Shown: positions 9,919 through 32,000 of the stretch, piece by piece | Numbering within the stretch: position 1 is the first letter of the stretch | Layout of the letters: the number at the start of each line of letters is the position of its first letter | Assembly (NCBI RefSeq): GCF_000025925.1 | Contig: NC_014033.1 | Location: 1,710,001 to 1,742,000, forward strand | DNA: 32,000 bases | Reading direction: 5' to 3' | Source of the DNA: Xylanibacter ruminicola 23 | GTDB lineage: Bacteria; Bacteroidota; Bacteroidia; Bacteroidales; Bacteroidaceae | Notes under the pieces: model-generated | The model's database searches: none | Told to the model about the DNA's origin: nothing | Seen by the model: the letters and a program-made list of their open reading frames with translations, nothing else | Made by a program: the position numbers and the translations under genes

Positions 9919-12087
9919 ATGAAGAAATTTAGAATTCCAGTTTTACTATTGGGAATGATGCTTTTAGCTAATCCCGTTAAAGCAGCAGAAAACGTGAAGA
10001 TAGGGAAACAGAATATCAAGCTTGCCAGCAACCTGATGACACCCGAGGCACTTTGGGCCATGGGTCGTGTAGGTGCTGCCGAGGCTTCGGCCGATGGTAA
10101 GCAGATTGTTTACCAGATTGGCTACTACAGCGTAAAGGCTAATAAGAGTCAGCAGAAGATTGCCATCATCAACGCTGATGGTACAGGCAACACCACTCTG
10201 ACCACTGGTAGCAAGAGCGAGACAGATCCTACCTGGTATAACGGAAAGATTGCTTTCCTGACAGGTGGACAGCTGTGGACTATGAACCCCGACGGTTCTG
10301 ACCGCAAGCAGATTTCGAACACCTCGAAACCTATCGAGGGTTTCAAGTTCTCGCCTGATGGCAAGAAGGTGATTCTGCTCCACTCACTCGAGTTCAACGA
10401 AATTATCAAGAAGAATCCCGACGATCTGCCAAAGGCTACTGGCCGCTTGGTAACCGATCTGATGTATCGCCACTGGGATCACTATGTAGAGAGCATCCAG
10501 CACCCCTTTGTTGCTGATGTAACAGAGGATGGCATCAAGGATGGTATCGACATTCTGGAGGGCGAGCCCTACGAGTGCCCCATGGAGCCATTCGGTGGTA
10601 TCGAGCAGTTAGACTGGGCACCCGACTCTAAGTCGATTGCCTATACCTGTCGTAAGAAGACCGGTCTGGAGTATTCTATCTCTACCGACTCAGATATCTA
10701 TTTATATATAATAGGTACGCGCGAGACCAAGAACCTTTGCAAGCCTGCAGATTACAAGGCACCTAAGGTTAATCCTACCAAGACCCTGAAGTATCAGAGT
10801 GTGAATGCCAAGGAGAACCTGAAGAATAACGTAGGTTACGATCAGAATCCTAAGTTCTCGCCTGATGGCAAGTATATTGCCTGGACTTCGATGGAGCGTG
10901 ATGGATACGAGGCTGATCGCCTGCGCCTGTGTGTTTACAACCTGGCTACTGGTGAGAAGAAATACGTAACCGAGAGCTTTGATTCAAGTGTTGAGGACTT
11001 TGTTTGGAGCGATTCTAAGGACGCGATGATTTACTTTATCGGTGTTTGGCACGCTACCATCAACCTCTACGCCGTAAACTGGAAGGGTGAACTGAAGCAG
11101 TTGACCAACACTTGGGACGACTTCGGACAGATTCACCTGATGAACAATGGAAAGCAGCTGCTGATGGAGCGTCATAACTACACATCACCTGCCGATCTGT
11201 ATATTGTTACTCCAAACTTCAAGAAGCCTGAGAAGACACAGACCAAGCAGCTTACTTTCGAGAACAAGCACATTCTTGATCAGCTGGCTAAGCCAACCGT
11301 ACAGCAGCGTTGGGTAAAGACCAGCGATGGCAAGCAGATGCTGGTTTGGGTAATTCTGCCACCAAACTTCGACGAGAATAAGAAGTACCCCACCCTGCTG
11401 TTCTGCGAGGGCGGTCCTCAGAGTCCTGTATCACAGTTCTGGAGCTACCGTTGGAACTTCATGATCATGGCTTCGCAGGGTTATGTAGTAGTAGCACCTA
11501 ACCGTCGCGGTCTGCCCGGATTCGGTCAGGAGTGGCTCGAGGAGATCTCTGGCGACTGGACTGGTCAGTGCATGAAGGACTATCTGGCAGCTATCGACGA
11601 CGCAGCCAACAATCTGCCATACGTAGATAAGGATAAACTGGGTGCCGTAGGTGCATCGTTCGGTGGATTCTCGGTTTACTATCTGGCAGGTCATCACGAT
11701 AAGCGTTTCAAGGCCTTCATCTCTCACGATGGTGCCTTTAACCTGGAGGCCATGTACACTGAGACCGAGGAGAACTGGTTCTCTAACTTCGAGTACGACG
11801 ATGCCTACTGGAACAAGGATCGTACCGCTAATGCCGACAAGACCTATAAGAACTCACCTCATCAGTTTGTTGACAAGTGGGATACACCTATCCTTGTGAT
11901 TCACGGCGAGATGGACTACCGTATCAACGCCACTCAGGGTATGTCGGCCTTTAATGCAGCACGCATGAAGGGTATTCCAGCCGAGCTGCTCATCTTCCCC
12001 GATGAGAACCACTGGGTACTGAAACCACAGAACGGTGTACTGTGGCAGCGCACCTTCTTTAACTGGTTGGACCGCTGGTTGAAATAA
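9919..12087 (+). CDS. S9 family serine peptidase (prolyl oligopeptidase/dipeptidyl-peptidase clan), secreted
   Basis: It has a signal peptide and PD40/TolB-like propeller repeats (FSPDGKKV, FSPDGKYIAWTS). The catalytic domain carries GASFGG (GxSxGG nucleophile elbow), HGEMDYRI (Asp) and DENHW (His). It starts only 5 nt after yidC. Confidence 0.88.
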   Translation: MKKFRIPVLLLGMMLLANPVKAAENVKIGKQNIKLASNLMTPEALWAMGRVGAAEASADGKQIVYQIGYYSVKANKSQQKIAIINADGTGNTTLTTGSKSETDPTWYNGKIAFLTGGQLWTMNPDGSDRKQISNTSKPIEGFKFSPDGKKVILLHSLEFNEIIKKNPDDLPKATGRLVTDLMYRHWDHYVESIQHPFVADVTEDGIKDGIDILEGEPYECPMEPFGGIEQLDWAPDSKSIAYTCRKKTGLEYSISTDSDIYLYIIGTRETKNLCKPADYKAPKVNPTKTLKYQSVNAKENLKNNVGYDQNPKFSPDGKYIAWTSMERDGYEADRLRLCVYNLATGEKKYVTESFDSSVEDFVWSDSKDAMIYFIGVWHATINLYAVNWKGELKQLTNTWDDFGQIHLMNNGKQLLMERHNYTSPADLYIVTPNFKKPEKTQTKQLTFENKHILDQLAKPTVQQRWVKTSDGKQMLVWVILPPNFDENKKYPTLLFCEGGPQSPVSQFWSYRWNFMIMASQGYVVVAPNRRGLPGFGQEWLEEISGDWTGQCMKDYLAAIDDAANNLPYVDKDKLGAVGASFGGFSVYYLAGHHDKRFKAFISHDGAFNLEAMYTETEENWFSNFEYDDAYWNKDRTANADKTYKNSPHQFVDKWDTPILVIHGEMDYRINATQGMSAFNAARMKGIPAELLIFPDENHWVLKPQNGVLWQRTFFNWLDRWLK

Positions 12088-12099
12088 GCAAGCAATATA

Positions 12100-12158
12100 T
12101 TCCCACGTTGGGAACAATTCATTCCCAGTGTGGGAATAATATGTTCCCAACGTGGGAA
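12100..12158. promoter_or_regulatory. three 15-bp palindromes TTCCCA-N3-TGGGAA at an exact 22-bp phase (12100-12114, 12122-12136, 12144-12158)
   Basis: Read directly from the sequence: TTCCCAcgtTGGGAA, TTCCCAgtgTGGGAA and TTCCCAacgTGGGAA. They sit between the S9 peptidase stop (12087) and the MFS start (12193). No TAnnTTTG box is present in this gap. Confidence 0.6.
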
Positions 12159-12192
12159 TAAATACGAAAAGTAATTAAATAGAAACAAAATA

Positions 12193-13815
12193 ATGACTCA
12201 AGCAATTCAAAAGACCCTTCGCGACAGCGCTGGAATGCGCTGGACTGCGCTTTTACTGCTGGCACTGGCCATGTTCTGTGCCTACATCTTTATGGACATT
12301 CTCTCACCTATCAAGGACCTGATGCAGGAGACCCGTGGTTGGGACTCAACAGCATTCGGAACCATGCAGGGTTCAGAGGTATTCCTTAACGTGTTCGTGT
12401 TCTTCCTCATCTTCGCAGGTATCATCCTCGACAAGATGGGCGTTCGTTTCACCGCTGTGCTTTCGGCTGCTGTAATGGTGGTTGGTGCCTGCGTAAAATG
12501 GTATGCCGTAAGCGAGAGCTTCATGGGAACCGGACTCGAGACTTGGTTTAACAACCATCTTAATTATATCCCCGTATTCGACGAACTGGGTGTATCACCA
12601 TTCTATGCTGGCATGCCTGCTTCGGCTAAGTTTGCTGCCTGCGGCTTCATGATCTTTGGTTGTGGCTGTGAGATGGCCGGTATCACCGTAAGTCGTGGTA
12701 TTGTAAAATGGTTCAAGGGTCGTGAGATGGCTTTGGCTATGGGTTCAGAGATGGCACTCGCCCGTCTGGGTGTTGCCACCTGTATGATCTTCTCGCCTTT
12801 CTTTGCCCGTTTGGGTGGTGAGGTTTCAGTAAGCCGTTCAGTAGCCTTCGGTGTGGTACTGATGTGTATCGCTCTCATCATGACCATCGTATATTTCTTC
12901 ATGGACCAGAAGCTGGATGCACAGACAGGTGAGGCTGAGGAGAAAGACGATCCATTTAAGATCAGCGACCTGGGTAAGATTCTTACCGATGCTGGTTTCT
13001 GGATTGTAGCTCTGCTTTGCGTGCTTTACTACTCAGCCATCTTCCCCTTCCAGAAGTATGCTGTAAACATGCTGCAGTGTAACCTGACTCTTACAGCCCC
13101 CGATGCTAACTCATTCTGGGCTCAGCCCGATGTTACCATCGTTCAGTACATCATCATGCTGATTGTGGCTGCTGCAGGTTTCGCCTCAAACTTCCAGAAG
13201 AAGGCCAACCTGAAGTACGGTCTGCTGGCTCTCTCAATCTTAGCACTCATTACCTACTGTTATATGGGCTTCATGCGTCAGTCAGCCGAGAGTATCTTTG
13301 CAGTATTCCCACTGCTGGCTGTACTCATCACACCTATCCTTGGTAGCTATCTCGACCACCACGGTAAGGCAGCCACCATGCTGGTACTGGGTTCAATCCT
13401 GCTGATTGCCTGTCACCTCACCTTCGCCTTCGTTCTGCCAATGTTCAAGGGCAATGCTGTTGGTGGTATCATCATCGCTTACACCACTATTCTGGTGCTG
13501 GGTGCTTCGTTCTCACTGGTACCTGCAAGCCTCTGGCCTTCAGTGCCCAAGCTGGTTGATGCCAAGGTAATCGGTTCGGCCTACGCTCTGATTTTCTGGA
13601 TTCAGAACATCGGTTTGTGGTTGTTCCCACTGCTGATTGGTAAGGTACTCGACCAGACAAACCCTGGCGTAACCGATCCTACACAGTTCGATTACACAGC
13701 ACCTCTGGTTATGCTGGCTTCGCTTGGTGTAGCAGCCCTCATCCTGGGCTTCGTGCTCAAGGTGGTAGATAAGAAGAAAGGTATTGGTCTTGAACTTCCA
13801 AACATCACAGAATAA
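12193..13815 (+). CDS. MFS transporter, MFSD1-like, long form (540 aa)
   Basis: A multi-TM protein. The blocks VKWFKGREMALAMGSEMALARLG, FWIVALLCVLYYSAIFPF and SLWPSVPKLVDAKVIGSAYALIFWIQNIG parallel human MFSD1 blocks that I recall (VSWFKGKELNLVFGLQLSMARIG; ALWPMVAFVVPEHQLGTAYGFMQSIQNLG). It is a paralogue of 15257-16612. Confidence 0.85.
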   Translation: MTQAIQKTLRDSAGMRWTALLLLALAMFCAYIFMDILSPIKDLMQETRGWDSTAFGTMQGSEVFLNVFVFFLIFAGIILDKMGVRFTAVLSAAVMVVGACVKWYAVSESFMGTGLETWFNNHLNYIPVFDELGVSPFYAGMPASAKFAACGFMIFGCGCEMAGITVSRGIVKWFKGREMALAMGSEMALARLGVATCMIFSPFFARLGGEVSVSRSVAFGVVLMCIALIMTIVYFFMDQKLDAQTGEAEEKDDPFKISDLGKILTDAGFWIVALLCVLYYSAIFPFQKYAVNMLQCNLTLTAPDANSFWAQPDVTIVQYIIMLIVAAAGFASNFQKKANLKYGLLALSILALITYCYMGFMRQSAESIFAVFPLLAVLITPILGSYLDHHGKAATMLVLGSILLIACHLTFAFVLPMFKGNAVGGIIIAYTTILVLGASFSLVPASLWPSVPKLVDAKVIGSAYALIFWIQNIGLWLFPLLIGKVLDQTNPGVTDPTQFDYTAPLVMLASLGVAALILGFVLKVVDKKKGIGLELPNITE

Positions 13816-20474: not shown

Positions 20475-21299
20475 TTATTTGATTTTAGAATTCTTTGTTC
20501 TGATGATGTCAAACAGATAAGTACACTTAATCACGATGTTACCGAAGTTAGATCGCGAAAAATAGTCGCGTTTTGTGTTGCCATATATGTTACCTAATCC
20601 GTAGTAGTAGCGGCCTTCTATCATGAAATGTCCAAAGTGGCGATTGCTGAACTCAAGTCCTGCACCTACAGCAATACCATAATCAAACTTATTCTCGATG
20701 GCCATGGTATCCTGTGCCACCACATGCGATGCACGCAGGTCACCATACACGTAGTCGGGACCGAATTTTCCATCTTTGATAGCTGGGTTAAAGGCAGGAT
20801 CGTGCACATCAAAGTTGCTCTCCACCTTATCGTTCAGATAGAATCCAATCTGAGGCCCCAGATGGATAAAGGCCTGCACGCCATTGCGCTCACGCCCCCA
20901 TCCCAGTCGGGCCAGCAGTGGTATCTGCACGTAGGTCATCTTACGTTTATACTCCAGATTCTGCGTAGGATCGGTATGCAGGGGCACGGGCTGATCGTTC
21001 ATATCCCATATCTTTTCCTGCCAACCTATCTGCGCAAAGTTCAGCTCAGCCGTTACGGCACAGATACTGCTGAAATATTTCTCACATGTGTAACGGGCCG
21101 TGATACCACCGGTAATGCCACCTAACATCGACTGTGGTACCTTCGACACAAACGACACATTACTCATCACATAACCGCCGTTCACACCAACAGCCAAGTC
21201 GTTACGATAGTCGCCTACCTGAGCAACAGCCGCTGCAATGAAAAAATGGAAAAATGAAAAAATTACAAATATACGCTTTATCATCCTTACATCCCTCAT
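20475..21299 (-). CDS. outer-membrane beta-barrel (porin-family, OMP_b-brl_2-like) protein
   Basis: 274 aa. It has a signal peptide (an alternative start MIKRIF at 21284 is possible) and alternating aromatic/Gly beta-strand patterning (YGIAVGAGLEF, FMIEGRYYYGLGNIY). Confidence 0.65.
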   Translation of the reverse strand: MRDVRMIKRIFVIFSFFHFFIAAAVAQVGDYRNDLAVGVNGGYVMSNVSFVSKVPQSMLGGITGGITARYTCEKYFSSICAVTAELNFAQIGWQEKIWDMNDQPVPLHTDPTQNLEYKRKMTYVQIPLLARLGWGRERNGVQAFIHLGPQIGFYLNDKVESNFDVHDPAFNPAIKDGKFGPDYVYGDLRASHVVAQDTMAIENKFDYGIAVGAGLEFSNRHFGHFMIEGRYYYGLGNIYGNTKRDYFSRSNFGNIVIKCTYLFDIIRTKNSKIK

Positions 21300-26227: not shown

Positions 26228-26293
26228 ATGAACAGAATTCAGAACAACTATTGGTGGTGGCAGAGCTCGAGATTAAATAGTCGCGAGGTTTAA
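26228..26293 (+). CDS. trp leader peptide, 21 aa, MNRIQNNYWWWQSSRLNSREV, with three consecutive Trp codons
   Basis: Hand translation: ATG at 26228, TGG TGG TGG at 26252-26260, TAA at 26291-26293. It is too short for the ORF track. It sits between the promoter and a terminator directly upstream of trpB. Confidence 0.7.
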   Translation: MNRIQNNYWWWQSSRLNSREV

Positions 26294-26323
26294 TGCCGTA
26301 TACCTATAGATATAGTATAAAAA

Positions 26324-26353
26324 GGCTCGTCGCGACAGCGACGGGCCTTTTTT
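26324..26353 (+). terminator. attenuator terminator (segments 3:4) of the trp leader
   Basis: GGCTCGTCGC (26324-26333), loop GACA, GCGACGGGCC (26338-26347), giving 10 bp with one G.U pair, then T6 (26348-26353). The alternative pairing of 26280-26286 (GTCGCGA) with 26330-36 (TCGCGAC) would disrupt it. Confidence 0.75.
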
Positions 26354-26355
26354 AA

Positions 26356-26376
26356 TTAAACATTGAAAATTGAAAA
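26356..26376 (+). repeat. heptad array TTAAACA-TTGAAAA-TTGAAAA upstream of trpB (contains AACATTGAAAATT, a 12/13 match to the trp box)
   Basis: Read directly. It lies between the attenuator T-tract and the trpB ATG (26388). Confidence 0.6.
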
Positions 26377-26387
26377 TATAAATAGAT

Positions 26388-27593
26388 ATGGAAAATTATT
26401 TTGCTGACGAGAGAGGTTTTTACGGAGAGTTTGGCGGGGCGTATGTTCCCGAGATACTCTACAAGTGTGTACACGACCTGCAGGAGGCTTACCTGCCTAT
26501 CATTGAAAGCGCAGAGTTTAAGGCAGAATACCACGCCCTGCTGAAAGATTATGTTGGTCGCCCCAGTCCACTGTACTTCGCTAAGCGCATGAGCGAGAAG
26601 TATGGTTGCCAACTTTACTTGAAGCGTGAGGACCTGAACCATACGGGTGCCCACAAGATCAACAACACTATCGGACAGATTCTGCTGGCCAAGAAATTGG
26701 GCAAGACACGCATCATAGCCGAGACAGGTGCCGGCCAGCACGGTGTGGCCACTGCCACCGTGTGCGCACTGATGAACATGAAGTGCGAGGTGTTTATGGG
26801 AGCTACCGACGTGGAGCGCCAGCACACCAATGTGGAGCGCATGAAGATGCTGGGTGCCGAGGTTCACCCCGTACGTACAGGTAACATGACGCTGAGCGAT
26901 GCCTGTAGCGAGGCTATACGCGACTGGTGCTGTCACCCTGCTGACACTTTCTACATCGTAGGTAGCACCATGGGCCCACACCCCTACCCCGACCTGGTGG
27001 CACGCATGCAGAGCGTGATCAGCGAAGAAATCAAATGGCAGCTAGAGGCCCAGATTGGTCGCGACTATCCCGACTATCTGATAGCCTGCATCGGTGGTGG
27101 TAGCAACGCAGCCGGCACTATCTATCACTACGTGAACGAAGAGCGCACCAAGATTGTGCTGGCCGAAGCTGGCGGACACGGTTGGCAGACCGACCATACT
27201 GCAGCCACCATCCATAAAGGTACAACAGGTATTCTTCACGGCTCAAAAATGCTGGTGATGCAGGATGAGAACGGACAGATACAGGAGGCCTTCACCATCA
27301 GCGCAGGTCTGGACTATCCCGGCGTTGGTCCCATGCACTGCAACATGGCGAAGAAAGGGCGCACACAGGTACTGAGTATCAACGACGATGAGGCTATCCG
27401 TGGCGGTTACGAGCTGACGCGTATGGAGGGTATCATCCCCGCCATCGAAAGTGCCCACGCCATTGCAGCACTCTCGAAACTCACGTTCAAGAAGGACGAT
27501 GTAGTAGTGCTGACGGTAAGCGGTCGCGGCGATAAGGACGTAGAGACCTATCTGAAGAATAAGGCTATGGCTGGTGAATACGGATATTTTTGA
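26388..27593 (+). CDS. trpB: tryptophan synthase beta chain
   Basis: 401 aa. It has FGGAYVPE, the PLP-lysine motif HTGAHKINN, and GGGSNA. Confidence 0.97.
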   Translation: MENYFADERGFYGEFGGAYVPEILYKCVHDLQEAYLPIIESAEFKAEYHALLKDYVGRPSPLYFAKRMSEKYGCQLYLKREDLNHTGAHKINNTIGQILLAKKLGKTRIIAETGAGQHGVATATVCALMNMKCEVFMGATDVERQHTNVERMKMLGAEVHPVRTGNMTLSDACSEAIRDWCCHPADTFYIVGSTMGPHPYPDLVARMQSVISEEIKWQLEAQIGRDYPDYLIACIGGGSNAAGTIYHYVNEERTKIVLAEAGGHGWQTDHTAATIHKGTTGILHGSKMLVMQDENGQIQEAFTISAGLDYPGVGPMHCNMAKKGRTQVLSINDDEAIRGGYELTRMEGIIPAIESAHAIAALSKLTFKKDDVVVLTVSGRGDKDVETYLKNKAMAGEYGYF

Positions 27594-27609
27594 TTGAACA
27601 TTGAACATT
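27594..27609 (+). repeat. heptad array TTGAACA-TTGAACA-TT filling the whole trpB-trpE gap (contains the 13-mer AACATTGAACATT at 27597-27609)
   Basis: Read directly. The array begins right after the trpB stop (27591-27593) and ends at the trpE ATG (27610). Confidence 0.7.
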
Positions 27610-29001
27610 ATGAGTAATTTCAATTATACAACTACAAGCAAAACCATTCTGGCGGATTTGTATACGCCAGTGGGGGTATATATGCGACTGAGAGATTTGT
27701 ACCCACAGAGCGCGCTGATGGAGAGTTCTGACTATCACGAGAAGGACAACTCACGCTCGTTTATCGGTATCGAGCCCATGGCCAGCGTAGCTATCGGTCA
27801 CGGCATGGCCACTATCACCTACCCTGATGGCACCACACTGCAGCACGAGGTAAACAAGGATTACCGCAGCGATAAGGCTATCCACGAACTGATAGATCGC
27901 ATACACGTAGAGGGTGACGATGCCAAGCTTTGCGGACTGTTTGGCTATACCAGCTTCAATGCCGTACGCTACTTTGAAGATATCAACGTAAAGGACGAGA
28001 CTCAGGCCAAGAACGATGCCCCTGACTTGCTTTATATATTATATAAGGTGGTGATTGTGTTCGACCACTTTAATAATACCATCAAGCTTGTTTCGCTGGA
28101 AGGCGATACCAAACTCGATGATGTAGTAAAGGCCATGAACAAGGCCAATGTAAAGGCATACGATTTCCACCCTGTAGGCGATGTGCGCTCTACCTTGACA
28201 GATGATGAGCATCGTGAGAACATCCGTCGAGGCATTAAGCACTGTCTGCGTGGCGATGTGTTCCAGATTGTGCTGAGCCGCCGATTCATCCAGCAATACG
28301 AGGGCGACGATTTCAAACTGTATCGTGCCCTGCGTTCAATCAACCCAAGCCCCTATCTGTTCTACTTCGACTTTGGCGGTTTCCGTATCTTCGGTTCAAG
28401 TCCCGAAACCCACTGTCGTATCGAAGGCCATAAAGCCTATATCGACCCTATTGCCGGTACCACCAAACGTACAGGTGATGCTGAGGCCGACCGCCAGGGG
28501 GCTGAATATCTGCGCAACGATCCTAAGGAGAATGCCGAGCACGTGATGCTGGTTGACCTGGCACGTAACGACCTGAGCCGCAACTGTCATGGTGTAAAGG
28601 TAGATTTCTATAAGGATTTGCAGTATTACAGTCATGTCATCCACTTGGTATCGCGTGTATCAGGCGAGCTCGATAACAACGCTGATCCTATCAAGGCTTT
28701 CATCGACACCTTCCCTGCAGGTACCCTTTCAGGTGCACCCAAGGTACGCGCCATGCAGCTTATCAGCGAGTACGAGCCACATAACCGCGGTGCCTACGGC
28801 GGTTGCATCGGCTACATCGGACTGGATGGCAGTTTGAATCAGGCCATCACCATCCGTACCTTTGTATCGCGTAATGGTGAGTTGTGGTTCCAGGCAGGTG
28901 GTGGCATCGTTGCTAAGAGCGATGTAGAGTACGAACTGCAGGAGGTGAACAACAAGCTTGGCGCCCTGCGCAAGGCTATACTGATGGCGGAGAAGATGTA
29001 A
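27610..29001 (+). CDS. trpE: anthranilate synthase component I
   Basis: The ORF track starts at the TTG at 27601; I prefer the ATG at 27610 (MSNFNYTTTSKTILADLYTPV...). The chorismate-binding core is present (GTLSGAPKVRAMQLI, GAYGGCIGY). Confidence 0.95.
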   Translation: MSNFNYTTTSKTILADLYTPVGVYMRLRDLYPQSALMESSDYHEKDNSRSFIGIEPMASVAIGHGMATITYPDGTTLQHEVNKDYRSDKAIHELIDRIHVEGDDAKLCGLFGYTSFNAVRYFEDINVKDETQAKNDAPDLLYILYKVVIVFDHFNNTIKLVSLEGDTKLDDVVKAMNKANVKAYDFHPVGDVRSTLTDDEHRENIRRGIKHCLRGDVFQIVLSRRFIQQYEGDDFKLYRALRSINPSPYLFYFDFGGFRIFGSSPETHCRIEGHKAYIDPIAGTTKRTGDAEADRQGAEYLRNDPKENAEHVMLVDLARNDLSRNCHGVKVDFYKDLQYYSHVIHLVSRVSGELDNNADPIKAFIDTFPAGTLSGAPKVRAMQLISEYEPHNRGAYGGCIGYIGLDGSLNQAITIRTFVSRNGELWFQAGGGIVAKSDVEYELQEVNNKLGALRKAILMAEKM

Positions 29002-29006
29002 TAAGG

Positions 29007-29034
29007 CACGGATTACACGGATTAACACGGATTT
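29007..29034 (+). repeat. three tandem CACGGATT(A/AA/T) units between trpE and trpG
   Basis: Read directly: CACGGATTA (29007-29015), CACGGATTAA (29016-29025) and CACGGATTT (29026-29034). The trpG ATG follows at 29038. Confidence 0.7.
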
Positions 29035-29037
29035 GTT

Positions 29038-29601
29038 ATGAAAATAGTCATTATTGATAACTACGACTCGTTTACATACAACTTGAGTCATTTAGTAAAG
29101 GAGCTGGGCGCAGAGGTAACGGTGCTGCGTAACGACCAGTTTAAGCTTGAGGATTTGGAGCCATATAGCAAGATTATCCTGAGTCCGGGGCCTGGTATCC
29201 CCAGCGAGGCAGGTCTGCTGCTCGACGTGATTAAGAGCTATGCTGGTAAGAAGCCTATCCTGGGTGTGTGTCTGGGACATCAAGCCATCGGCGAGGCATT
29301 CGGTGGTAAGCTGGAAAACCTGAGCGATGTGTTCCACGGCGTAGCAACACCCTGTCATATTACCGTAGAAGACCCCATCTTCAGTGGCATAGAGCGAAAT
29401 ATCACCATCGGTCGCTACCACTCGTGGGTGGTATCAAAAGAGAACCTGCCCGACTGCTTAGAGGTAACCGCCGAGAGCGACGAAGGACAGATTATGGCCC
29501 TGCGCCACAAAACGATGAACATCCGCGGCATACAGTTCCACCCAGAGAGCGTACTGACACCCGACGGCAAGAAAATGCTGCAAAACTGGATGTTTCTTTA
29601 A
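29038..29601 (+). CDS. trpG: anthranilate synthase component II (glutamine amidotransferase)
   Basis: 187 aa. It is a class-I GATase with GVCLGHQ (catalytic Cys) and the FHPES motif. Confidence 0.92.
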   Translation: MKIVIIDNYDSFTYNLSHLVKELGAEVTVLRNDQFKLEDLEPYSKIILSPGPGIPSEAGLLLDVIKSYAGKKPILGVCLGHQAIGEAFGGKLENLSDVFHGVATPCHITVEDPIFSGIERNITIGRYHSWVVSKENLPDCLEVTAESDEGQIMALRHKTMNIRGIQFHPESVLTPDGKKMLQNWMFL

Positions 29602-29631
29602 CATTGAACATTAAAGATTAAACATTAAAAG
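29597..29631 (+). repeat. five tandem heptads TTTAACA-TTGAACA-TTAAAGA-TTAAACA-TTAAAAG upstream of trpD (contains the 16-mer TTTAACATTGAACATT at 29597-29612)
   Basis: Read directly. The array overlaps the trpG stop (29599-29601) and ends 4 nt before the trpD ATG (29636). Confidence 0.7.
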
Positions 29632-29635
29632 AGAT

Positions 29636-30646
29636 ATGGCACAGACAATGAAGGACATCCTGAACAGGATGCTGAACCACGAGGAACTGTCTCGTGAAGA
29701 AATGAAAGAAATTCTGATTGGTATCACCCAGAGCGAGTATCCCAACGAGCAGATTACTGCTCTGCTCACCGCGCTGCAGATGCGTGGCGTAACAGTCGAC
29801 GAACTGTTGGGTTTCCGCGATGGTATCTTGGAAACAGGCGTGCCAGCCATTCTGAATGCCGATCGCTACATCGACGTGGTAGGTACAGGTGGCGACCGCA
29901 AGAACACCTTTAATATCTCGACCACCAGCTGCTTTGTGATTGCTGGTGCGGGCTACAAGGTAGCTAAGCATGGAAACTACGCAGCTACATCGGTATCGGG
30001 TGCATCGAACGTGATTCAGCACCACGGCATTAAGTTTACCGATGATATCGACAAACTGAACCGCAGCTTGAACGAGGCTGGCATCGTGTATCTGCACGCC
30101 CAGCTGTTTGCCAAGGCCATGAAGTTTGTAGGCCCCATCCGCAAGGCCCTGCAGTTCCCTACCATCTTTAATTTGTTAGGACCACTGGTTAACCCCTCAC
30201 AGCCACAGTGCCAGTTATTGGGTGTAGCCAACCTCGACCAGATGCGCCTGTACAACCAGGTATATCAAAAGATTGGAATCGACTACGGTATCGTGAACTC
30301 TATCGATGGTTACGACGAGATCTCGCTGACAGGCGACTTCAAGGTAACCACCAAGCATTACGAGCGTATCTTTAAGCCCAGCGACCTTGGCTTTGAAATT
30401 GCCAAGCCCGAAGAGTTGGTTGGCGGTGCTACCGAAGAGGAGGCAGCACAGATCTTCGACAGCGTACTGGAGAACCGTGCCCTGCCCGCTCAGAAGAATA
30501 TCGTACTGGCCAATGCCGCCTTCGGTATCCAGGTTCTGGAGAAGGGCGAGAAGAGCATCGAGGAGTGTGTAGAGATTGCCCGCGAGAGTATCGACAGCGG
30601 TGCCGCCCTCCGCACCTTCAAGAAGTTCGTTGAGTTGAACAGTTAA
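29636..30646 (+). CDS. trpD: anthranilate phosphoribosyltransferase
   Basis: 336 aa. It has the GTGGD motif (DVVGTGGDRKNTFNIST) and KHGN. Confidence 0.95.
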   Translation: MAQTMKDILNRMLNHEELSREEMKEILIGITQSEYPNEQITALLTALQMRGVTVDELLGFRDGILETGVPAILNADRYIDVVGTGGDRKNTFNISTTSCFVIAGAGYKVAKHGNYAATSVSGASNVIQHHGIKFTDDIDKLNRSLNEAGIVYLHAQLFAKAMKFVGPIRKALQFPTIFNLLGPLVNPSQPQCQLLGVANLDQMRLYNQVYQKIGIDYGIVNSIDGYDEISLTGDFKVTTKHYERIFKPSDLGFEIAKPEELVGGATEEEAAQIFDSVLENRALPAQKNIVLANAAFGIQVLEKGEKSIEECVEIARESIDSGAALRTFKKFVELNS

Positions 30647-30708
30647 TTTTGGGCAACGGACTACAGGACCTAAAGATTATGCACTACCTATTGTAAATAT
30701 AAATAACA

Positions 30709-31494
30709 ATGGATATATTAGAAGAGATAGTAGCGAACAAGCGCGTGGAAGTTGAAGCAGCCAAGTTGGCTGTAGCACCAGCAGTGCTGCACAAACAGGT
30801 GGAGGCGATTCTCGACTTTAGCGTGGCTTCGATGAAAAATGCCCTCACCGCATCCGACTCGGGCATCATCGCAGAGTTCAAACGCAAGTCACCTTCAAAG
30901 GGTTGGATCAAAGAGGAGGGCCAACCCGACATCATCCCATTGAGCTACCAAAAGAATGGCGCTGCTGCACTGAGCATACTTACCGACCAGAAGTATTTTG
31001 GCGGTTGCGACGACTTTATTCGCACGGCCCGTCACAGCGGTGTAAACATCCCCATCCTTTACAAGAACTTTGTGATAGATGAGTACCAGCTGTTCCAGGC
31101 ACGCTTGTGCGGGGCTTCGGCTGTACTGCTGATTGCCGCCGACTTGTCGATAGCCGAGTGTAAAAGTCTGCTGAACACCGCCCACCAGTTAGGTCTGGAA
31201 GTTCTTTTAGAGATGCACTCCAACAAAGAATTGGAATACGCTGGGTTAGAGCCAGATATGTACGGTATCAACAACCGCAATTTAGGTTCATTTGTGACCG
31301 ACGTAGAGAACTCATTCCGCTTGGCTGAGCTATTACCAAAGGATGCCGTAAAGGTGAGCGAGAGTGGTATTTCGAACCCTGATACGGTGAAGGCTTTACG
31401 TGAGGTTGGTTTCCGTGGTTTCCTGATTGGCGAGAACTTTATGAAGACAGCCGATCCAGGATCAGCATTACGTGAATTGATTGAGAAGCTATGA
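30709..31494 (+). CDS. trpC: indole-3-glycerol phosphate synthase
   Basis: 261 aa. It has IAEFKRKSPSKG, SILTD..YFGG, and the LLEMH / INNRNL motifs. Confidence 0.95.
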   Translation: MDILEEIVANKRVEVEAAKLAVAPAVLHKQVEAILDFSVASMKNALTASDSGIIAEFKRKSPSKGWIKEEGQPDIIPLSYQKNGAAALSILTDQKYFGGCDDFIRTARHSGVNIPILYKNFVIDEYQLFQARLCGASAVLLIAADLSIAECKSLLNTAHQLGLEVLLEMHSNKELEYAGLEPDMYGINNRNLGSFVTDVENSFRLAELLPKDAVKVSESGISNPDTVKALREVGFRGFLIGENFMKTADPGSALRELIEKL

Positions 31495-32000
31495 TAATCA
31501 AGGTTTGTGGTATGAGAGAGGCGGAGAACATCCGCGAGGTTGAACAATGTTCAATGTTAAATGATCAATGTTCAATTGATTGGATGGGCTTCATCTTCTG
31601 GCCTAAGTCGAGTAGGTTTGTGAGCCAAGTGCCAGCTTACTTGCCAAAGCACTGCCAGCGCGTGGGTGTGTTTGTTGATGCCAGCATCGGCGACATCATG
31701 TCGGCCGTAGATAGCTTTGCACTCAACTATATCCAGTTGCATGGTCAGGAGTCGCCCAGCTACATCATTCAGTTGAAGCCACATCTACCCGCCGATGTAA
31801 AAATAATTAAATCCTTCAACATCGCCACTACCAACGACCTGGCGCAGACCAAACCCTACGAAGGATTGGCAGATATCTTTCTCTTCGATACGAAAGGAAA
31901 GTGCGTGGGTGGCAACGGTGAGAAGTTCGACTGGACGGTACTCGACGCCTACACAGGCAACACACCTTTCTTGCTGAGTGGTGGTATCGGTCCCGATGAT
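31491..32000 (+). CDS. trpF: phosphoribosylanthranilate isomerase, 5' 170 codons; the gene continues past the window end
   Basis: Not in the ORF track because it is open-ended. The ATG at 31491 overlaps the trpC stop as ATGA. Hand translation gives MIIKVCGMREAENIREVEQCSMLNDQCSIDWMGFIFWPKSSRFV...IQLHGQESP...FLFDTKG...GGNGEKFDW...LLSGGIGPDD, which is typical TrpF apart from an extra segment. Confidence 0.85.
   Translation, partial: MIIKVCGMREAENIREVEQCSMLNDQCSIDWMGFIFWPKSSRFVSQVPAYLPKHCQRVGVFVDASIGDIMSAVDSFALNYIQLHGQESPSYIIQLKPHLPADVKIIKSFNIATTNDLAQTKPYEGLADIFLFDTKGKCVGGNGEKFDWTVLDAYTGNTPFLLSGGIGPDD
31540..31580 (-). repeat. inverted copy of the trp heptad array inside the trpF coding sequence (minus strand reads TTGAACA-TTGATCA-TTTAACA-TTGAACA-TTGTTCA)
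   Basis: Read directly. It contains the rc of the 16-mer (31546-31561), the 15-bp palindrome TTGAACAATGTTCAA (31540-31554), and a 21-nt-spaced duplication of CAATGTTCAAT (31545-31555 and 31566-31576). Confidence 0.7.

Follow-up and report, generated by a model that had tools for sequence, protein, structure and literature searches.

Heptanucleotide arrays at the trp operon junctions of Xylanibacter ruminicola are probably simple-sequence repeats rather than a trp-specific regulatory site

Introduction

In the tryptophan operon of Xylanibacter ruminicola 23, short tandem heptads of the TTGAACA/ATTGAAC type adjoin the start codons of trpB, trpE and trpD and lie, inverted, inside trpF. Do they form a cis-regulatory box particular to the trp genes, or are they a repeat that is found irrespective of the genes around it? 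In Bacillus subtilis, the trp leader and the trpG initiation region carry (G/U)AG triplet repeats bound by TRAP. Heptanucleotides are the most abundant class of long simple-sequence repeats (LSSRs) in many bacteria, with polymerase slippage as the proposed origin, as the survey of Mrázek (2007) is relayed in PMC4679880 and PMC4692102. We addressed the question in a window of 32,000 nucleotides (NC_014033.1, positions 1,710,001 to 1,742,000), in other strains of the species and in related genomes.

Repeat copies in the trp operon

The identities of trpB, trpE, trpG, trpD, trpC and trpF were confirmed with NCBIfam, and the operon contains the following tandem arrays:

26354 to 26377, plus strand: heptad array AACATTG AAAATTG AAAAT.., downstream of the attenuator terminator and upstream of the trpB start (26388); TRF period 7, 3.4 copies
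27593 to 27609, plus strand: heptad array ATTGAAC x2.4, occupying the entire trpB-trpE spacer; TRF period 7, 2.4 copies
29007 to 29033, plus strand: tandem repeat of a different unit, CACGGATTAA x2.8, occupying the trpE-trpG spacer; TRF
29597 to 29629, plus strand: heptad array AACATTG AACATTA AAGATTA AACATTA, trpG-trpD; TRF 29600-29629, period 7, 4.3 copies
31545 to 31576, minus strand: antisense heptad array inside trpF; TRF period 7, 4.6 copies

The original prediction was built on 7-nt periodic arrays holding three exact copies of the 13-mer AACATTGAACATT and a 12/13 variant, and all of these were verified in the sequence. The exact copies lie at 27597-27609 (plus strand), with the last base directly 5' of the trpE ATG (27610); at 29600-29612 (plus strand), 23 nt upstream of the trpD ATG (29636); and at 31546-31558 on the minus strand, within trpF; the variant is found at 26359-26371, upstream of trpB. 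Direct reading likewise confirmed that the 16-mer TTTAACATTGAACATT at 29597-29612 is the reverse complement of 31546-31561. The copies do exceed chance, and they are confined as had been claimed: with up to 2 mismatches allowed, AACATTGAACATT has 8 matches in the window against 1.06 expected (a count reached by 0 of 100 dinucleotide shuffles), all 8 inside the trp operon, while the remaining ~27 kb of the window yields no match. The 16-mer includes a variant unit, TTTAAC, which hints at copying rather than independent slippage.

Together with TGAs at 27595 and 27602, the trpB stop TGA (27591-27593) blocks every reading frame of the trpB-trpE spacer; the trpG-trpD array overlaps the trpG stop TAA (29599-29601) and ends 6 nt upstream of the trpD ATG. 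The CACGGATTAA repeat between trpE and trpG, absent from the earlier account, is the same phenomenon with another unit, and the CACGGATTA unit of this spacer recurs in the trpD-trpC spacers of a sister species (L011) and of X. ruminicola strain D31d (L074).

Variation between strains of the species

Whole units are gained and lost between strains, as seen in the ~36 kb of the X. ruminicola genome covered within the species. Contigs that encode a 100% identical TrpD nevertheless carry arrays that differ by whole units (+7, +14 and +21 nt), and even the unit family that occupies a given spacer differs between them. Upstream of trpB, the array has one extra unit in D31d, and its site holds a 30-nt hairpin insert in L001, L003 and L007; the trpB-trpE spacer exists as ATTGAAC x2 or x3, or as AATTGAT/AATTGAC x3 or x4. 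Alleles of the trpG-trpD spacer include a 14-nt expansion (L006), five ATTGAAC-type units (L074), a period-8 AAAATGTA/AAAATTAG array (L001, L004, L008 and L010) and a 34-nt hairpin insert (L003 and L007). One of the assemblies is interrupted precisely at the trpF array. Judged from the alleles themselves, such whole-unit length changes would be the signature of slippage.

The trpF copy is a member of the same repeat family as the junction arrays; its translation, QCSMLNDQCS, lies in the alpha1-beta2 loop. Within the species an in-frame indel of 21 nt (3 units; 31556-31576 or an equivalent register) is polymorphic: L001 and L004 have the short allele EVEQCSIDW, the other strains the long one, and length changes in 21-nt steps only. 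An AlphaFold2 model of TrpF (pLDDT 91) places the insert between helix 11-19 and strand 31-35, predicting a surface-exposed loop at the TIM barrel's non-catalytic face. In the sense orientation TGA would fall in every reading frame, which is why the array is antisense. Of 77 taxa, 13 have arrays in the same loop, built from further units such as CTTCACT, GTCAATT and CTCAACT; mapped onto the tree, these amount to at least 11 changes. A TrpE loop is a second hot spot.

Arrays across related genomes and beyond

The clade-wide sample comprised 81 sources (1.16 Mb). Junction arrays are present across 80 related trp operons; their units, however, are other, lineage-specific ones (ATCGAAAY/ATAACGAA, CCCATWAG, AACTCCCC, ATTGAAG and others). 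The sample holds 119 arrays of period 7, 55 of period 8 and 53 of period 9, against 1.2, 0.8 and 1.2 in local-composition shuffles, an excess of ~100-fold for period 7; periods 6 and 10 are represented by 3 and 9 arrays. Typically an array runs from the upstream stop codon, or a few nucleotides off it, to a few nucleotides before the next start, and 69 of the 88 arrays in same-strand spacers have a sense-strand stop triplet within the unit. Sites within a locus have a unit in common in 23% of cases, versus 11% between loci (0/2000 permutations). In the rumen Prevotella/Xylanibacter, arrays with periods of 7 > 8 ≈ 9 nt thus make up many intercistronic spacers, and their unit sequences are lineage-specific and tend to recur at several sites per genome.

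Per kb there are 3.9 arrays in trp spacers, 0.94 in intergenic DNA elsewhere and ~0.1 in CDS; among same-strand spacers of 12-100 nt, arrays are borne by 71/175 in trp operons versus 22/113 elsewhere (ranges 32–57% versus 17–22%), gene calls outside the trp genes being ORF-based approximations. Compared with other spacers between same-strand genes, the trp junctions are enriched 2-3-fold in arrays. This enrichment is more than pure neutrality explains, although orthologous trp operons are non-independent samples. A 45-nt AAATGTA-type spacer is identical in two species whose coding DNA is ~87% identical; this could reflect constraint, although mosaic recombination is evident in the same operon.

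A metagenome scan for three ATTGAAH units matched at least 120 contigs from diverse biomes, and no trp genes were found among the contigs listed that carry ATTGAAM arrays. Among the matches listed, arrays reach 19 units, and the 44 that fall in open frames of at least 200 aa all lie on the opposite strand, none on the same strand. Arrays of this fast-evolving kind thus fill many spacers between genes, and some protein loops, within this bacterial group and beyond. Together with the variation of copy number and unit between strains and the other units in related operons, these non-trp sites argue against the trp-specific box of the original prediction. Its suggestion of a dispersed repeat came closest: arrays, the ATTGAAM unit included, do lie at many unrelated sites, as lineage-specific tandem repeats and not as a fixed mobile box.

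Discussion

The TTGAACA/ATTGAAC “box” is probably a set of microsatellite-like heptanucleotide long simple-sequence repeats and not a trp-specific cis-regulatory site. To our knowledge, Prevotella is not described in the LSSR survey of Mrázek et al., and a literature search found no paper describing it there.

The arrays are best read as a kind of repeat already known, the heptamer LSSR (Mrázek et al., 2007, as far as that survey is relayed by later papers) and the TAACTGA array (MacGregor, 2015). The parts of the survey so relayed describe head-to-tail 5-11-nt units, longer and commoner than composition predicts, with heptamers most abundant, mostly intergenic, variable between close relatives and attributed to polymerase slippage; near-complete occupancy of the intercistronic spacers of one operon and recurrent in-frame arrays in the same enzyme loops are described here and not in those parts. 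The TAACTGA arrays of marine Beggiatoaceae, some cyanobacteria and five Bacteroidetes (PMC4679880) are likewise tandem direct repeats of a 7-nt unit, in 2-6 or more copies, situated a few nucleotides directly upstream of starts, often overlapping the upstream stop, and lacking Shine-Dalgarno character; forward copies give stops in three frames and reverse copies are translated in ORFs at structurally peripheral positions. The present units differ (ATTGAAC, AACATTA and many others), as does the host, a rumen Prevotella/Xylanibacter; unlike BOGUAY, with its one dominant heptamer, these genomes have many unit families and periods of 8-9 as well, and we additionally document copy-number and unit polymorphism within a species. 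Dispersed intergenic tandem heptamer families are also known as the STRRs of Calothrix PCC 7601, found inside operons too (pecE-pecF; Mazel, 1990, as cited in PMC4692102), and as GGGAATC in Xanthomonas and GGGGAYT in Nostoc (Rehm, 2015; PMC4692102). All of these, the STRRs as cited there, vary highly in length and sequence between close relatives and occasionally form inverted pairs; their units, however, are G-rich, some of them G-quadruplex-forming, where ours are A/T-rich with a TGA/TAA core, and their host phyla differ (PMC4692102).

Alternatively, the arrays may be landing pads for translation (re)initiation, at which an ssRNA binder with a ~7-nt footprint (an OB-fold protein of the bS1 or cold-shock type) binds the heptads and brings ribosomes to internal cistrons, or keeps them there, in this Shine-Dalgarno-independent lineage, copy number tuning the relative output of the Trp enzymes. 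Such a role would suit arrays that adjoin start codons in same-strand spacers, the specific over-representation of periods 7-9, units common to several spacers of one genome and the enrichment of trp junctions; MacGregor proposed S1, Csp or CsrA on TAACTGA arrays, B. subtilis CspB binds heptamers (PMC4679880), and in Bacteroidetes bS1 is the suspected reader of the A-rich stretch from -12 to -15 (PMC6847099). We nevertheless regard it as unlikely: unit sequence is unconserved even inside one species, arrays are no nearer the start than the stop codon (24 vs 39), initiation regions that carry arrays show no less structure than others (MFE -2.7 vs -3.2 kcal/mol, p=0.50) and have no better A(-3,-6,-12,-13) determinants (2.07 vs 2.37), and the same arrays occur in coding loops and non-coding contexts in many unrelated taxa. 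That a very small mobile element left the arrays as its footprint or carried them as cargo, or that they are the product of ectopic templated copying that spreads units in either orientation, is decidedly improbable. Unit sharing is higher within than between genomes, the shared 16-mer holds a variant unit, a ~30-nt hairpin repeat is inserted directly beside AACATT units with TTAAACATT flanking both sides, and TrpF and TrpE loops recurrently gain arrays; against this, the arrays come with neither a transposase nor terminal repeats nor fixed element boundaries, their lengths change by whole units as slippage predicts, and unit diversity is continuous rather than made up of a few discrete elements.

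The original prediction also offered two regulatory readings, and neither survived comparison. In one, the antisense trpF array and the initiation regions of trpE and trpD, all on one polycistronic mRNA, form duplexes that repress or coordinate translation of the two genes; in this strain the array is indeed perfectly complementary over 13 nt (trpE) and 16 nt (trpD). Complementarity of at least 13 nt is, however, limited to conspecific strains with the AACATT junction allele: the conspecific L008, with the long trpF allele and a different trpG-trpD spacer, has 6 nt only; in L011, the sister species, the trpF insert is identical and 7 nt are complementary; L001 and L004 are without the 21-nt insert; and ~10 other species with trpF arrays show at most 8 nt, matching the sense-strand control. 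The antisense orientation is accounted for more simply by the stop codons that sense units carry. Since the complementarity comes without covariation in relatives (6-8 nt), long-range pairing is rejected as very improbable. The other reading, a TRAP-like, Trp-activated oligomeric protein whose binding to the heptads blocks the trpB, trpE and trpD starts, we find scarcely credible. It draws on evenly spaced short repeats that adjoin three start codons of a trp operon, much as TRAP sites overlap trp initiation regions in B. subtilis, and on the array-rich trp junctions. Yet the arrays contain no (G/U)AG triplets and far fewer units (just 2-5 per site), their sequences vary between conspecific strains and are unconserved among orthologous operons, and the same arrays lie at non-trp sites and, among the matches listed, in contigs without trp genes. 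Unlike the operon under TRAP control, this one has its own leader-peptide attenuator (WWW leader peptide; terminator z = -5.8; RF01692 match of 42 bits in the orthologous locus), by which Trp sensing is already explained.

Under the simple-sequence repeat explanation, slipped-strand mispairing would both create the arrays and drive their turnover, supplemented now and then by ectopic copying or by recombination between arrays. Slippage alone explains neither the favoured periods of 7-9 nor how a 2-unit seed gained three in-frame units. Bacteroidia initiate translation without Shine-Dalgarno pairing (PMC6847099, PMC7797042). Between cistrons the arrays may persist because a spacer that is weakly structured, A/U-rich and poor in AUG, and that has stops in every frame, would be at least harmless in a lineage whose ribosomes ignore Shine-Dalgarno sequences. 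The trpF copy sits in the sole orientation compatible with an ORF, sense units carrying TGA, and Trp-responsive control is a separate matter, exerted by the upstream WWW leader-peptide attenuator.

The trp Operon and Its Repeats

A Bacteroidota-type trp operon occupies 26.0-32.0 kb of the window, and each of its genes has an NCBIfam equivalog-level match. Its genes, leader and repeats are arranged as follows.

Features of the trp operon (positions in the window)
26228-26293: leader ORF MNRIQNNYWWWQSSRLNSREV-stop (WWW), upstream of trpB
~26319-26354: G+C-rich terminator hairpin and U-run, after the leader ORF
26359-26371: 12/13 variant of the 13-mer
26388-27593: trpB
27597-27609 (+): 13-mer AACATTGAACATT, exact
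27610-29001: trpE
29007-29033: period-10 array, CACGGATTAA x2.8, in the trpE-trpG spacer (found by TRF; the unit differs from the heptads)
29038-29601: trpG
29600-29612 (+): 13-mer, exact
29636-30646: trpD
30709-31494: trpC
31491 to beyond the window end: trpF
31546-31558 (-): 13-mer, exact

The original prediction had located the 13-mer copies, the 12/13 variant and a 16-mer at 29597-29612 that is the reverse complement of 31546-31561; re-checked on the sequence, all of these coordinates are correct. Its statement that the other ~27 kb of the window hold no copy also stands: a window scan allowing up to two mismatches gave eight matches against 1.06 expected, a number reached in 0 of 100 shuffles, and all eight lie inside the trp operon. 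TRF reports period-7 arrays at four sites of the window, with 2.4-4.6 copies each; the units are ATTGAAC, AACATTA and AAAATTG. At the trpB-trpE junction, TGA triplets at 27591, 27595 and 27602 close all three frames, and the array stops at -1 of trpE.

The CACGGATTA unit of the trpE-trpG spacer array recurs in the trpD-trpC spacers of a sister species (L011) and of X. ruminicola D31d (L074). Outside the operon, a further short tandem array adjoining a start codon is AATGAAAA x3.4 (period 8, 21237-21263); the ORF concerned (20475-21299, minus strand) either has the array at its 5' end or starts shortly downstream of it. A 22-nt unit, AATATATTCCCAACGTGGGAAT x3.1, fills 12094-12161 between the same-strand ORFs 9919-12087 and 12193-13815, with a short hairpin in every unit; among intergenic arrays clade-wide, 15 have period 22, which forms a minor peak.

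Distribution of Arrays in Relatives and Metagenomes

A TrpF profile, searched against a single genome of each species, yielded 80 rumen Prevotella/Xylanibacter trp operons, in which the trp genes were identified by tblastn and genes beyond them by greedy ORF calls. The trp junctions of these operons are likewise filled with short tandem repeats, and the units are lineage-specific: ATCGAAAY/ATAACGAA (period 8) occupies as many as three junctions in a single operon, AACTCCCCYT arrays span 150-220 nt, and CCCATWAG, AAGAAGTTYA and ATTGAAG/ATTGAAA serve as units elsewhere. AACATTG is among the clade's commonest heptads, and these trp-centred loci have many unit families each.

Clade-wide counts were taken over 81 sources (1.16 Mb), the 80 loci being all trp-centred and phylogenetically related, with ~36 kb of the species' own genome covered. 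Arrays of period 7, 8 and 9 number 119, 55 and 53, against 1.2, 0.8 and 1.2 in shuffles preserving local composition, and there are just 3 and 9 arrays of periods 6 and 10. For periods 6-12 the density is 3.9/kb in trp spacers, 0.94/kb in other intergenic DNA and ~0.1/kb in coding DNA, trp and non-trp alike. Units are shared more often within a locus (23%) than between loci (11%; 0 of 2000 permutations).

Among same-strand trp spacers an array is present in 36/114 of those of 12-40 nt and 35/61 of those of 41-100 nt (32-57%), and the corresponding non-trp spacers have one in 13/59 and 9/54 cases (22/113 in total), for example TGAACTA x7.6 in locus L058, TGAAAAT x9.9 in L034 and a TGAAAAT array running into a start codon in L087. 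Since arrays stand in non-trp spacers too, they are not trp-specific; the trp operon is enriched 2-3x, yet its arrays are the same in kind. Scanning metagenomes for three ATTGAAH units, which provides contexts rather than frequencies, returned at least 120 contigs from very different biomes, with arrays of up to 19 units among the matches listed; a search for trp enzymes in 670 kb of these contigs found none among the matches listed. The unit thus occurs at many unrelated sites, which is what the original prediction had itself named as removing trp specificity. Its proposal of a dispersed repeat comes closest of the three it offered, in that the same kind of array is present at many non-trp sites.

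Variation within the Species

The TrpD of the window is encoded identically on many contigs, including GCA_019973335.1 and several bovine-rumen assemblies, and X. ruminicola D31d is the GTDB representative with a 98% identical TrpF. Conspecific contigs are near-identical in coding DNA and divergent in their arrays; those with identical TrpD differ at the arrays by +7, +14 and +21 nt, and such whole-unit changes of length among strains are the signature of slipped-strand mispairing. Alleles of the trpB-trpE spacer are ATTGAAC x2 or x3 and AATTGAT/AATTGAC x3 or x4. The AACATTG-type array of the trpG-trpD spacer has 4 units, +14 nt, or 5 units, and other strains have in this spacer a period-8 AAAATGTA/AAAATTAG array or an array split by a hairpin insert of 34 nt. 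Before trpB, strains have either an array of 3 or 4 units or an insert of 30 nt. That the unit sequence changes within one species argues against a sequence-specific ligand. In trpF two alleles lie 21 nt (3 units) apart in frame, EVEQCSIDW versus EVEQCSMLNDQCSIDW, and length alleles among 12 conspecific contigs are restricted to in-frame ±21 nt. A phase-variable contingency SSR was considered and set aside, there being no out-of-frame or ON/OFF length variants among these 12 contigs.

In locus L005 the scaffold gap (N) at ~11900-12000 coincides exactly with the trpF heptad array, suggesting that short-read assembly is interrupted by the repeat itself or by population heterogeneity there. The operon is moreover a recombination mosaic: trpB is 85-90% identical among conspecific strains and trpE-trpF 97-100% (L002 versus L004 and L074; mosaic trpB region at ~6850-7750 of L002), and the 45-nt trpG-trpD spacer allele of the sister species L011 is identical in L004 and L010, both of the window's species, with ~87% coding identity between the two species.

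A small two-hairpin dispersed repeat (consensus TCTTGGC-nnn-GCCAAGCGGCAAAGCCGAGCG) was also encountered in the compared loci; the window has no copy.

Copies of the two-hairpin repeat (positions in each locus)
L001: 6630-6670
L003: 6654-6695 and 9943-9985
L011: 2781-2820
L023: 6914-6945
L033: 7063-7095
L044: ~9560 (-)
L080: ~13535 (-)

In some strains it adjoins AACATT units in trp spacers, with TTAAACATT on either side; copies outside trp have compensatory stem changes (CTTCGC/GCGAAG), and the L023 copy is part of a MITE-like insert of ~160 nt that has long terminal inverted repeats. The 30-nt hairpin insert was therefore rejected as a trp-specific element, diverged copies with compensatory stem changes standing outside trp in L044 and L080.

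Orientation of Arrays and Insertions in Enzyme Loops

A unit in sense orientation holds TGA (or TAA), and three units close three frames; a sense array is therefore impossible inside an ORF, and the trpF copy is inverted. The same rule of orientation is seen elsewhere: among the metagenome matches listed, 44/44 arrays within open frames of at least 200 aa sit on the opposite strand and none on the same strand, and for the Prevotella loci, 69 of 88 arrays in same-strand spacers have a stop triplet on the sense strand. MacGregor gave this sense-stop explanation of ORF orientation for TAACTGA repeats too (PMC4679880).

Many relatives have an insertion in TrpF at the same point as the window, between NIREVE and MGFIF, and the DNA encoding it consists of arrays (CTTCACT x4, CTTCACC/G x6, CTCAACT, TCTCAAA, GTCAATT x4 and the period-8 TCAACTCG). 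AlphaFold2, run on a TrpF with the window's insert (pLDDT 91), places it in the loop between helix 11-19 and strand 31-35, the predicted alpha1-beta2 loop at the barrel's non-catalytic face, a site that tolerates insertions. A single inherited insert was rejected: the TrpF loop inserts are scattered over 13 of 77 taxa and need at least 11 changes on a single-gene NJ tree; this tree is noisy, and recombination is frequent. A second hot spot is the TrpE loop HCRIEGH|KAYIDP (window ~28430), where several species have 11-30-aa inserts derived from heptad arrays; that of Prevotella aff. ruminicola Tc2-24 (L071), EKCSMSNDQCSMY, is encoded by AATGTTC heptads, as is the trpF insert of the window. The site is polymorphic in the window's own species, a 13-aa insert (ASPLPPPKGRGAM) being present in L001 and L074 and absent from the window, as is the case at a second TrpE hot spot, VSLE|GDTK (window ~28100), with +8 aa (APSNLPQK) in the same two strains.

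Candidate Functions of the Arrays

The operon's own Trp sensor is a predicted classic leader-peptide attenuator upstream of trpB. Its leader ORF is followed by a strong predicted terminator, the fold having -50.6 kcal/mol and z = -5.8, and the orthologous leader of the conspecific L003 scores 42.1 bits against Rfam RF01692 (Bacteroid-trp leader, "Bacteroidete tryptophan peptide leader RNA"), where the gathering score is 49. A permissive Rfam search of the orthologous locus returned only this family, below threshold, and a search of the window returned no family at the gathering threshold, RF01692 included.

The arrays had been proposed as binding sites for a TRAP-like regulator. TRAP sites are made of 9-11 (G/U)AG triplets, 2-3 nt apart; the arrays, in contrast, are without a GAG or TAG triplet and have just 2-5 units per site, and their motif is not conserved in orthologous trp operons, the units differing by strain and species. 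Together with the non-trp sites and the predicted leader attenuator, this speaks against such a regulator. Long-range RNA pairing between trpF and the junctions, also proposed, draws on 13 nt and 16 nt of perfect complementarity in the window, but was rejected because the complementarity does not co-vary in relatives: lengths of 13 nt or more are confined to those strains of this species whose junction has the AACATT allele, and the value falls to 6 nt in the conspecific L008, to 7 nt in the sister species L011, whose trpF insert is identical, and to at most 8 nt, the level of the sense-strand control, in ~10 other species with trpF arrays.

A role in translation initiation was weighed against the known preferences of Bacteroidia, which use no Shine-Dalgarno pairing and favor adenines at -3, -6, -12 and -13 together with weak structure (PMC6847099, PMC7797042). 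The trpE junction of the window has adenines at all four positions. Across spacers, however, arrays do not loosen the initiation region (MFE -2.7 versus -3.2 kcal/mol, p=0.50, both classes lying near their shuffles), nor does the 7-nt period phase adenines onto the key positions (key-A score 2.07 in array versus 2.37 in non-array regions, with A at -12/-13 lower in the former). Arrays are not placed toward the start codon either, 24 being nearer the start and 39 nearer the stop (median distances 6 nt to the start and 2 nt from the stop), and their base composition is that of non-array spacers. The arrays are thus compatible with local initiation needs yet give no sign of optimisation for initiation. 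A low-specificity single-strand binder (bS1 or CSP) may act on them. We consider it improbable that the excess of 7-9-nt arrays is the footprint of an OB-fold ssRNA binder (bS1/cold-shock-type) for Shine-Dalgarno-independent (re)initiation, with slippage retuning stoichiometry. If it were, unit-number slippage would be a fast, heritable retuning of enzyme stoichiometry within an operon, and the trp operon, with its share of occupied spacers and several alleles per spacer in one species, would lend itself naturally to testing the idea.

Identity and Significance of the Repeats

The box is best explained as a member of the class of heptanucleotide long simple-sequence repeats (LSSR). As in that class, a unit within the range of 5-11 nt is repeated head to tail (TRF period 7, 2.4-4.6 copies, four sites), arrays exceed what composition predicts (8 versus 1.06 in the window, 119 versus 1.2 clade-wide), close strains differ by whole units (+7, +14, +21 nt), and arrays are mostly intergenic and tied to no single pathway (0.94-3.9 arrays/kb in intergenic versus ~0.1/kb in CDS). 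Slippage would generate the arrays, and occasional ectopic copying or recombination may spread units, which would account for the shared units and for the 16-mer with its variant unit; as stop-rich, AUG-poor, A/U-rich spacers, the arrays are probably harmless or mildly useful.

Among the long SSRs of many bacteria, heptamers are described as the most abundant class, with polymerase slippage proposed as their origin (Mrázek, 2007, as cited in PMC4679880 and PMC4692102), and repeat families of cyanobacteria (STRR) and Xanthomonas take intergenic and intra-operon positions (PMC4692102). TAACTGA arrays are known from Beggiatoaceae, cyanobacteria and five Bacteroidetes, where they stand a short distance before start codons and are reversed in the copies that fall inside ORFs (PMC4679880). 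Like these TAACTGA repeats (MacGregor, 2015), the forward copies described here stand shortly before start codons and close three frames, and the copies in ORFs are reversed and sit at the protein periphery (trpF alpha1-beta2 loop). The unit, however, is not TAACTGA but ATTGAAC, AACATTA or AAAATTG. In the TAACTGA case one heptamer dominates the genome; the trp-centred loci examined here have many unit families each. A literature search on heptamer repeats in Prevotella found no specific report; Prevotella/Xylanibacter would be a new host group for a known kind of repeat.

A striking and statistically solid repeat beside three trp start codons is thus not evidence for a trp regulator, and in Prevotella genomes such arrays are liable to mislead assemblers and motif searches as well as the annotation of operon junctions and start codons. 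The question of heptamer abundance and role before start codons, posed since the cyanobacterial STRR, gains a well-sampled and cultivable lineage. One species here offers a natural allelic series of 2, 3 and 4 units, alternative units, and ±21 nt in a TIM-barrel loop, so that effects on translation and the tolerance of the enzyme are directly testable.
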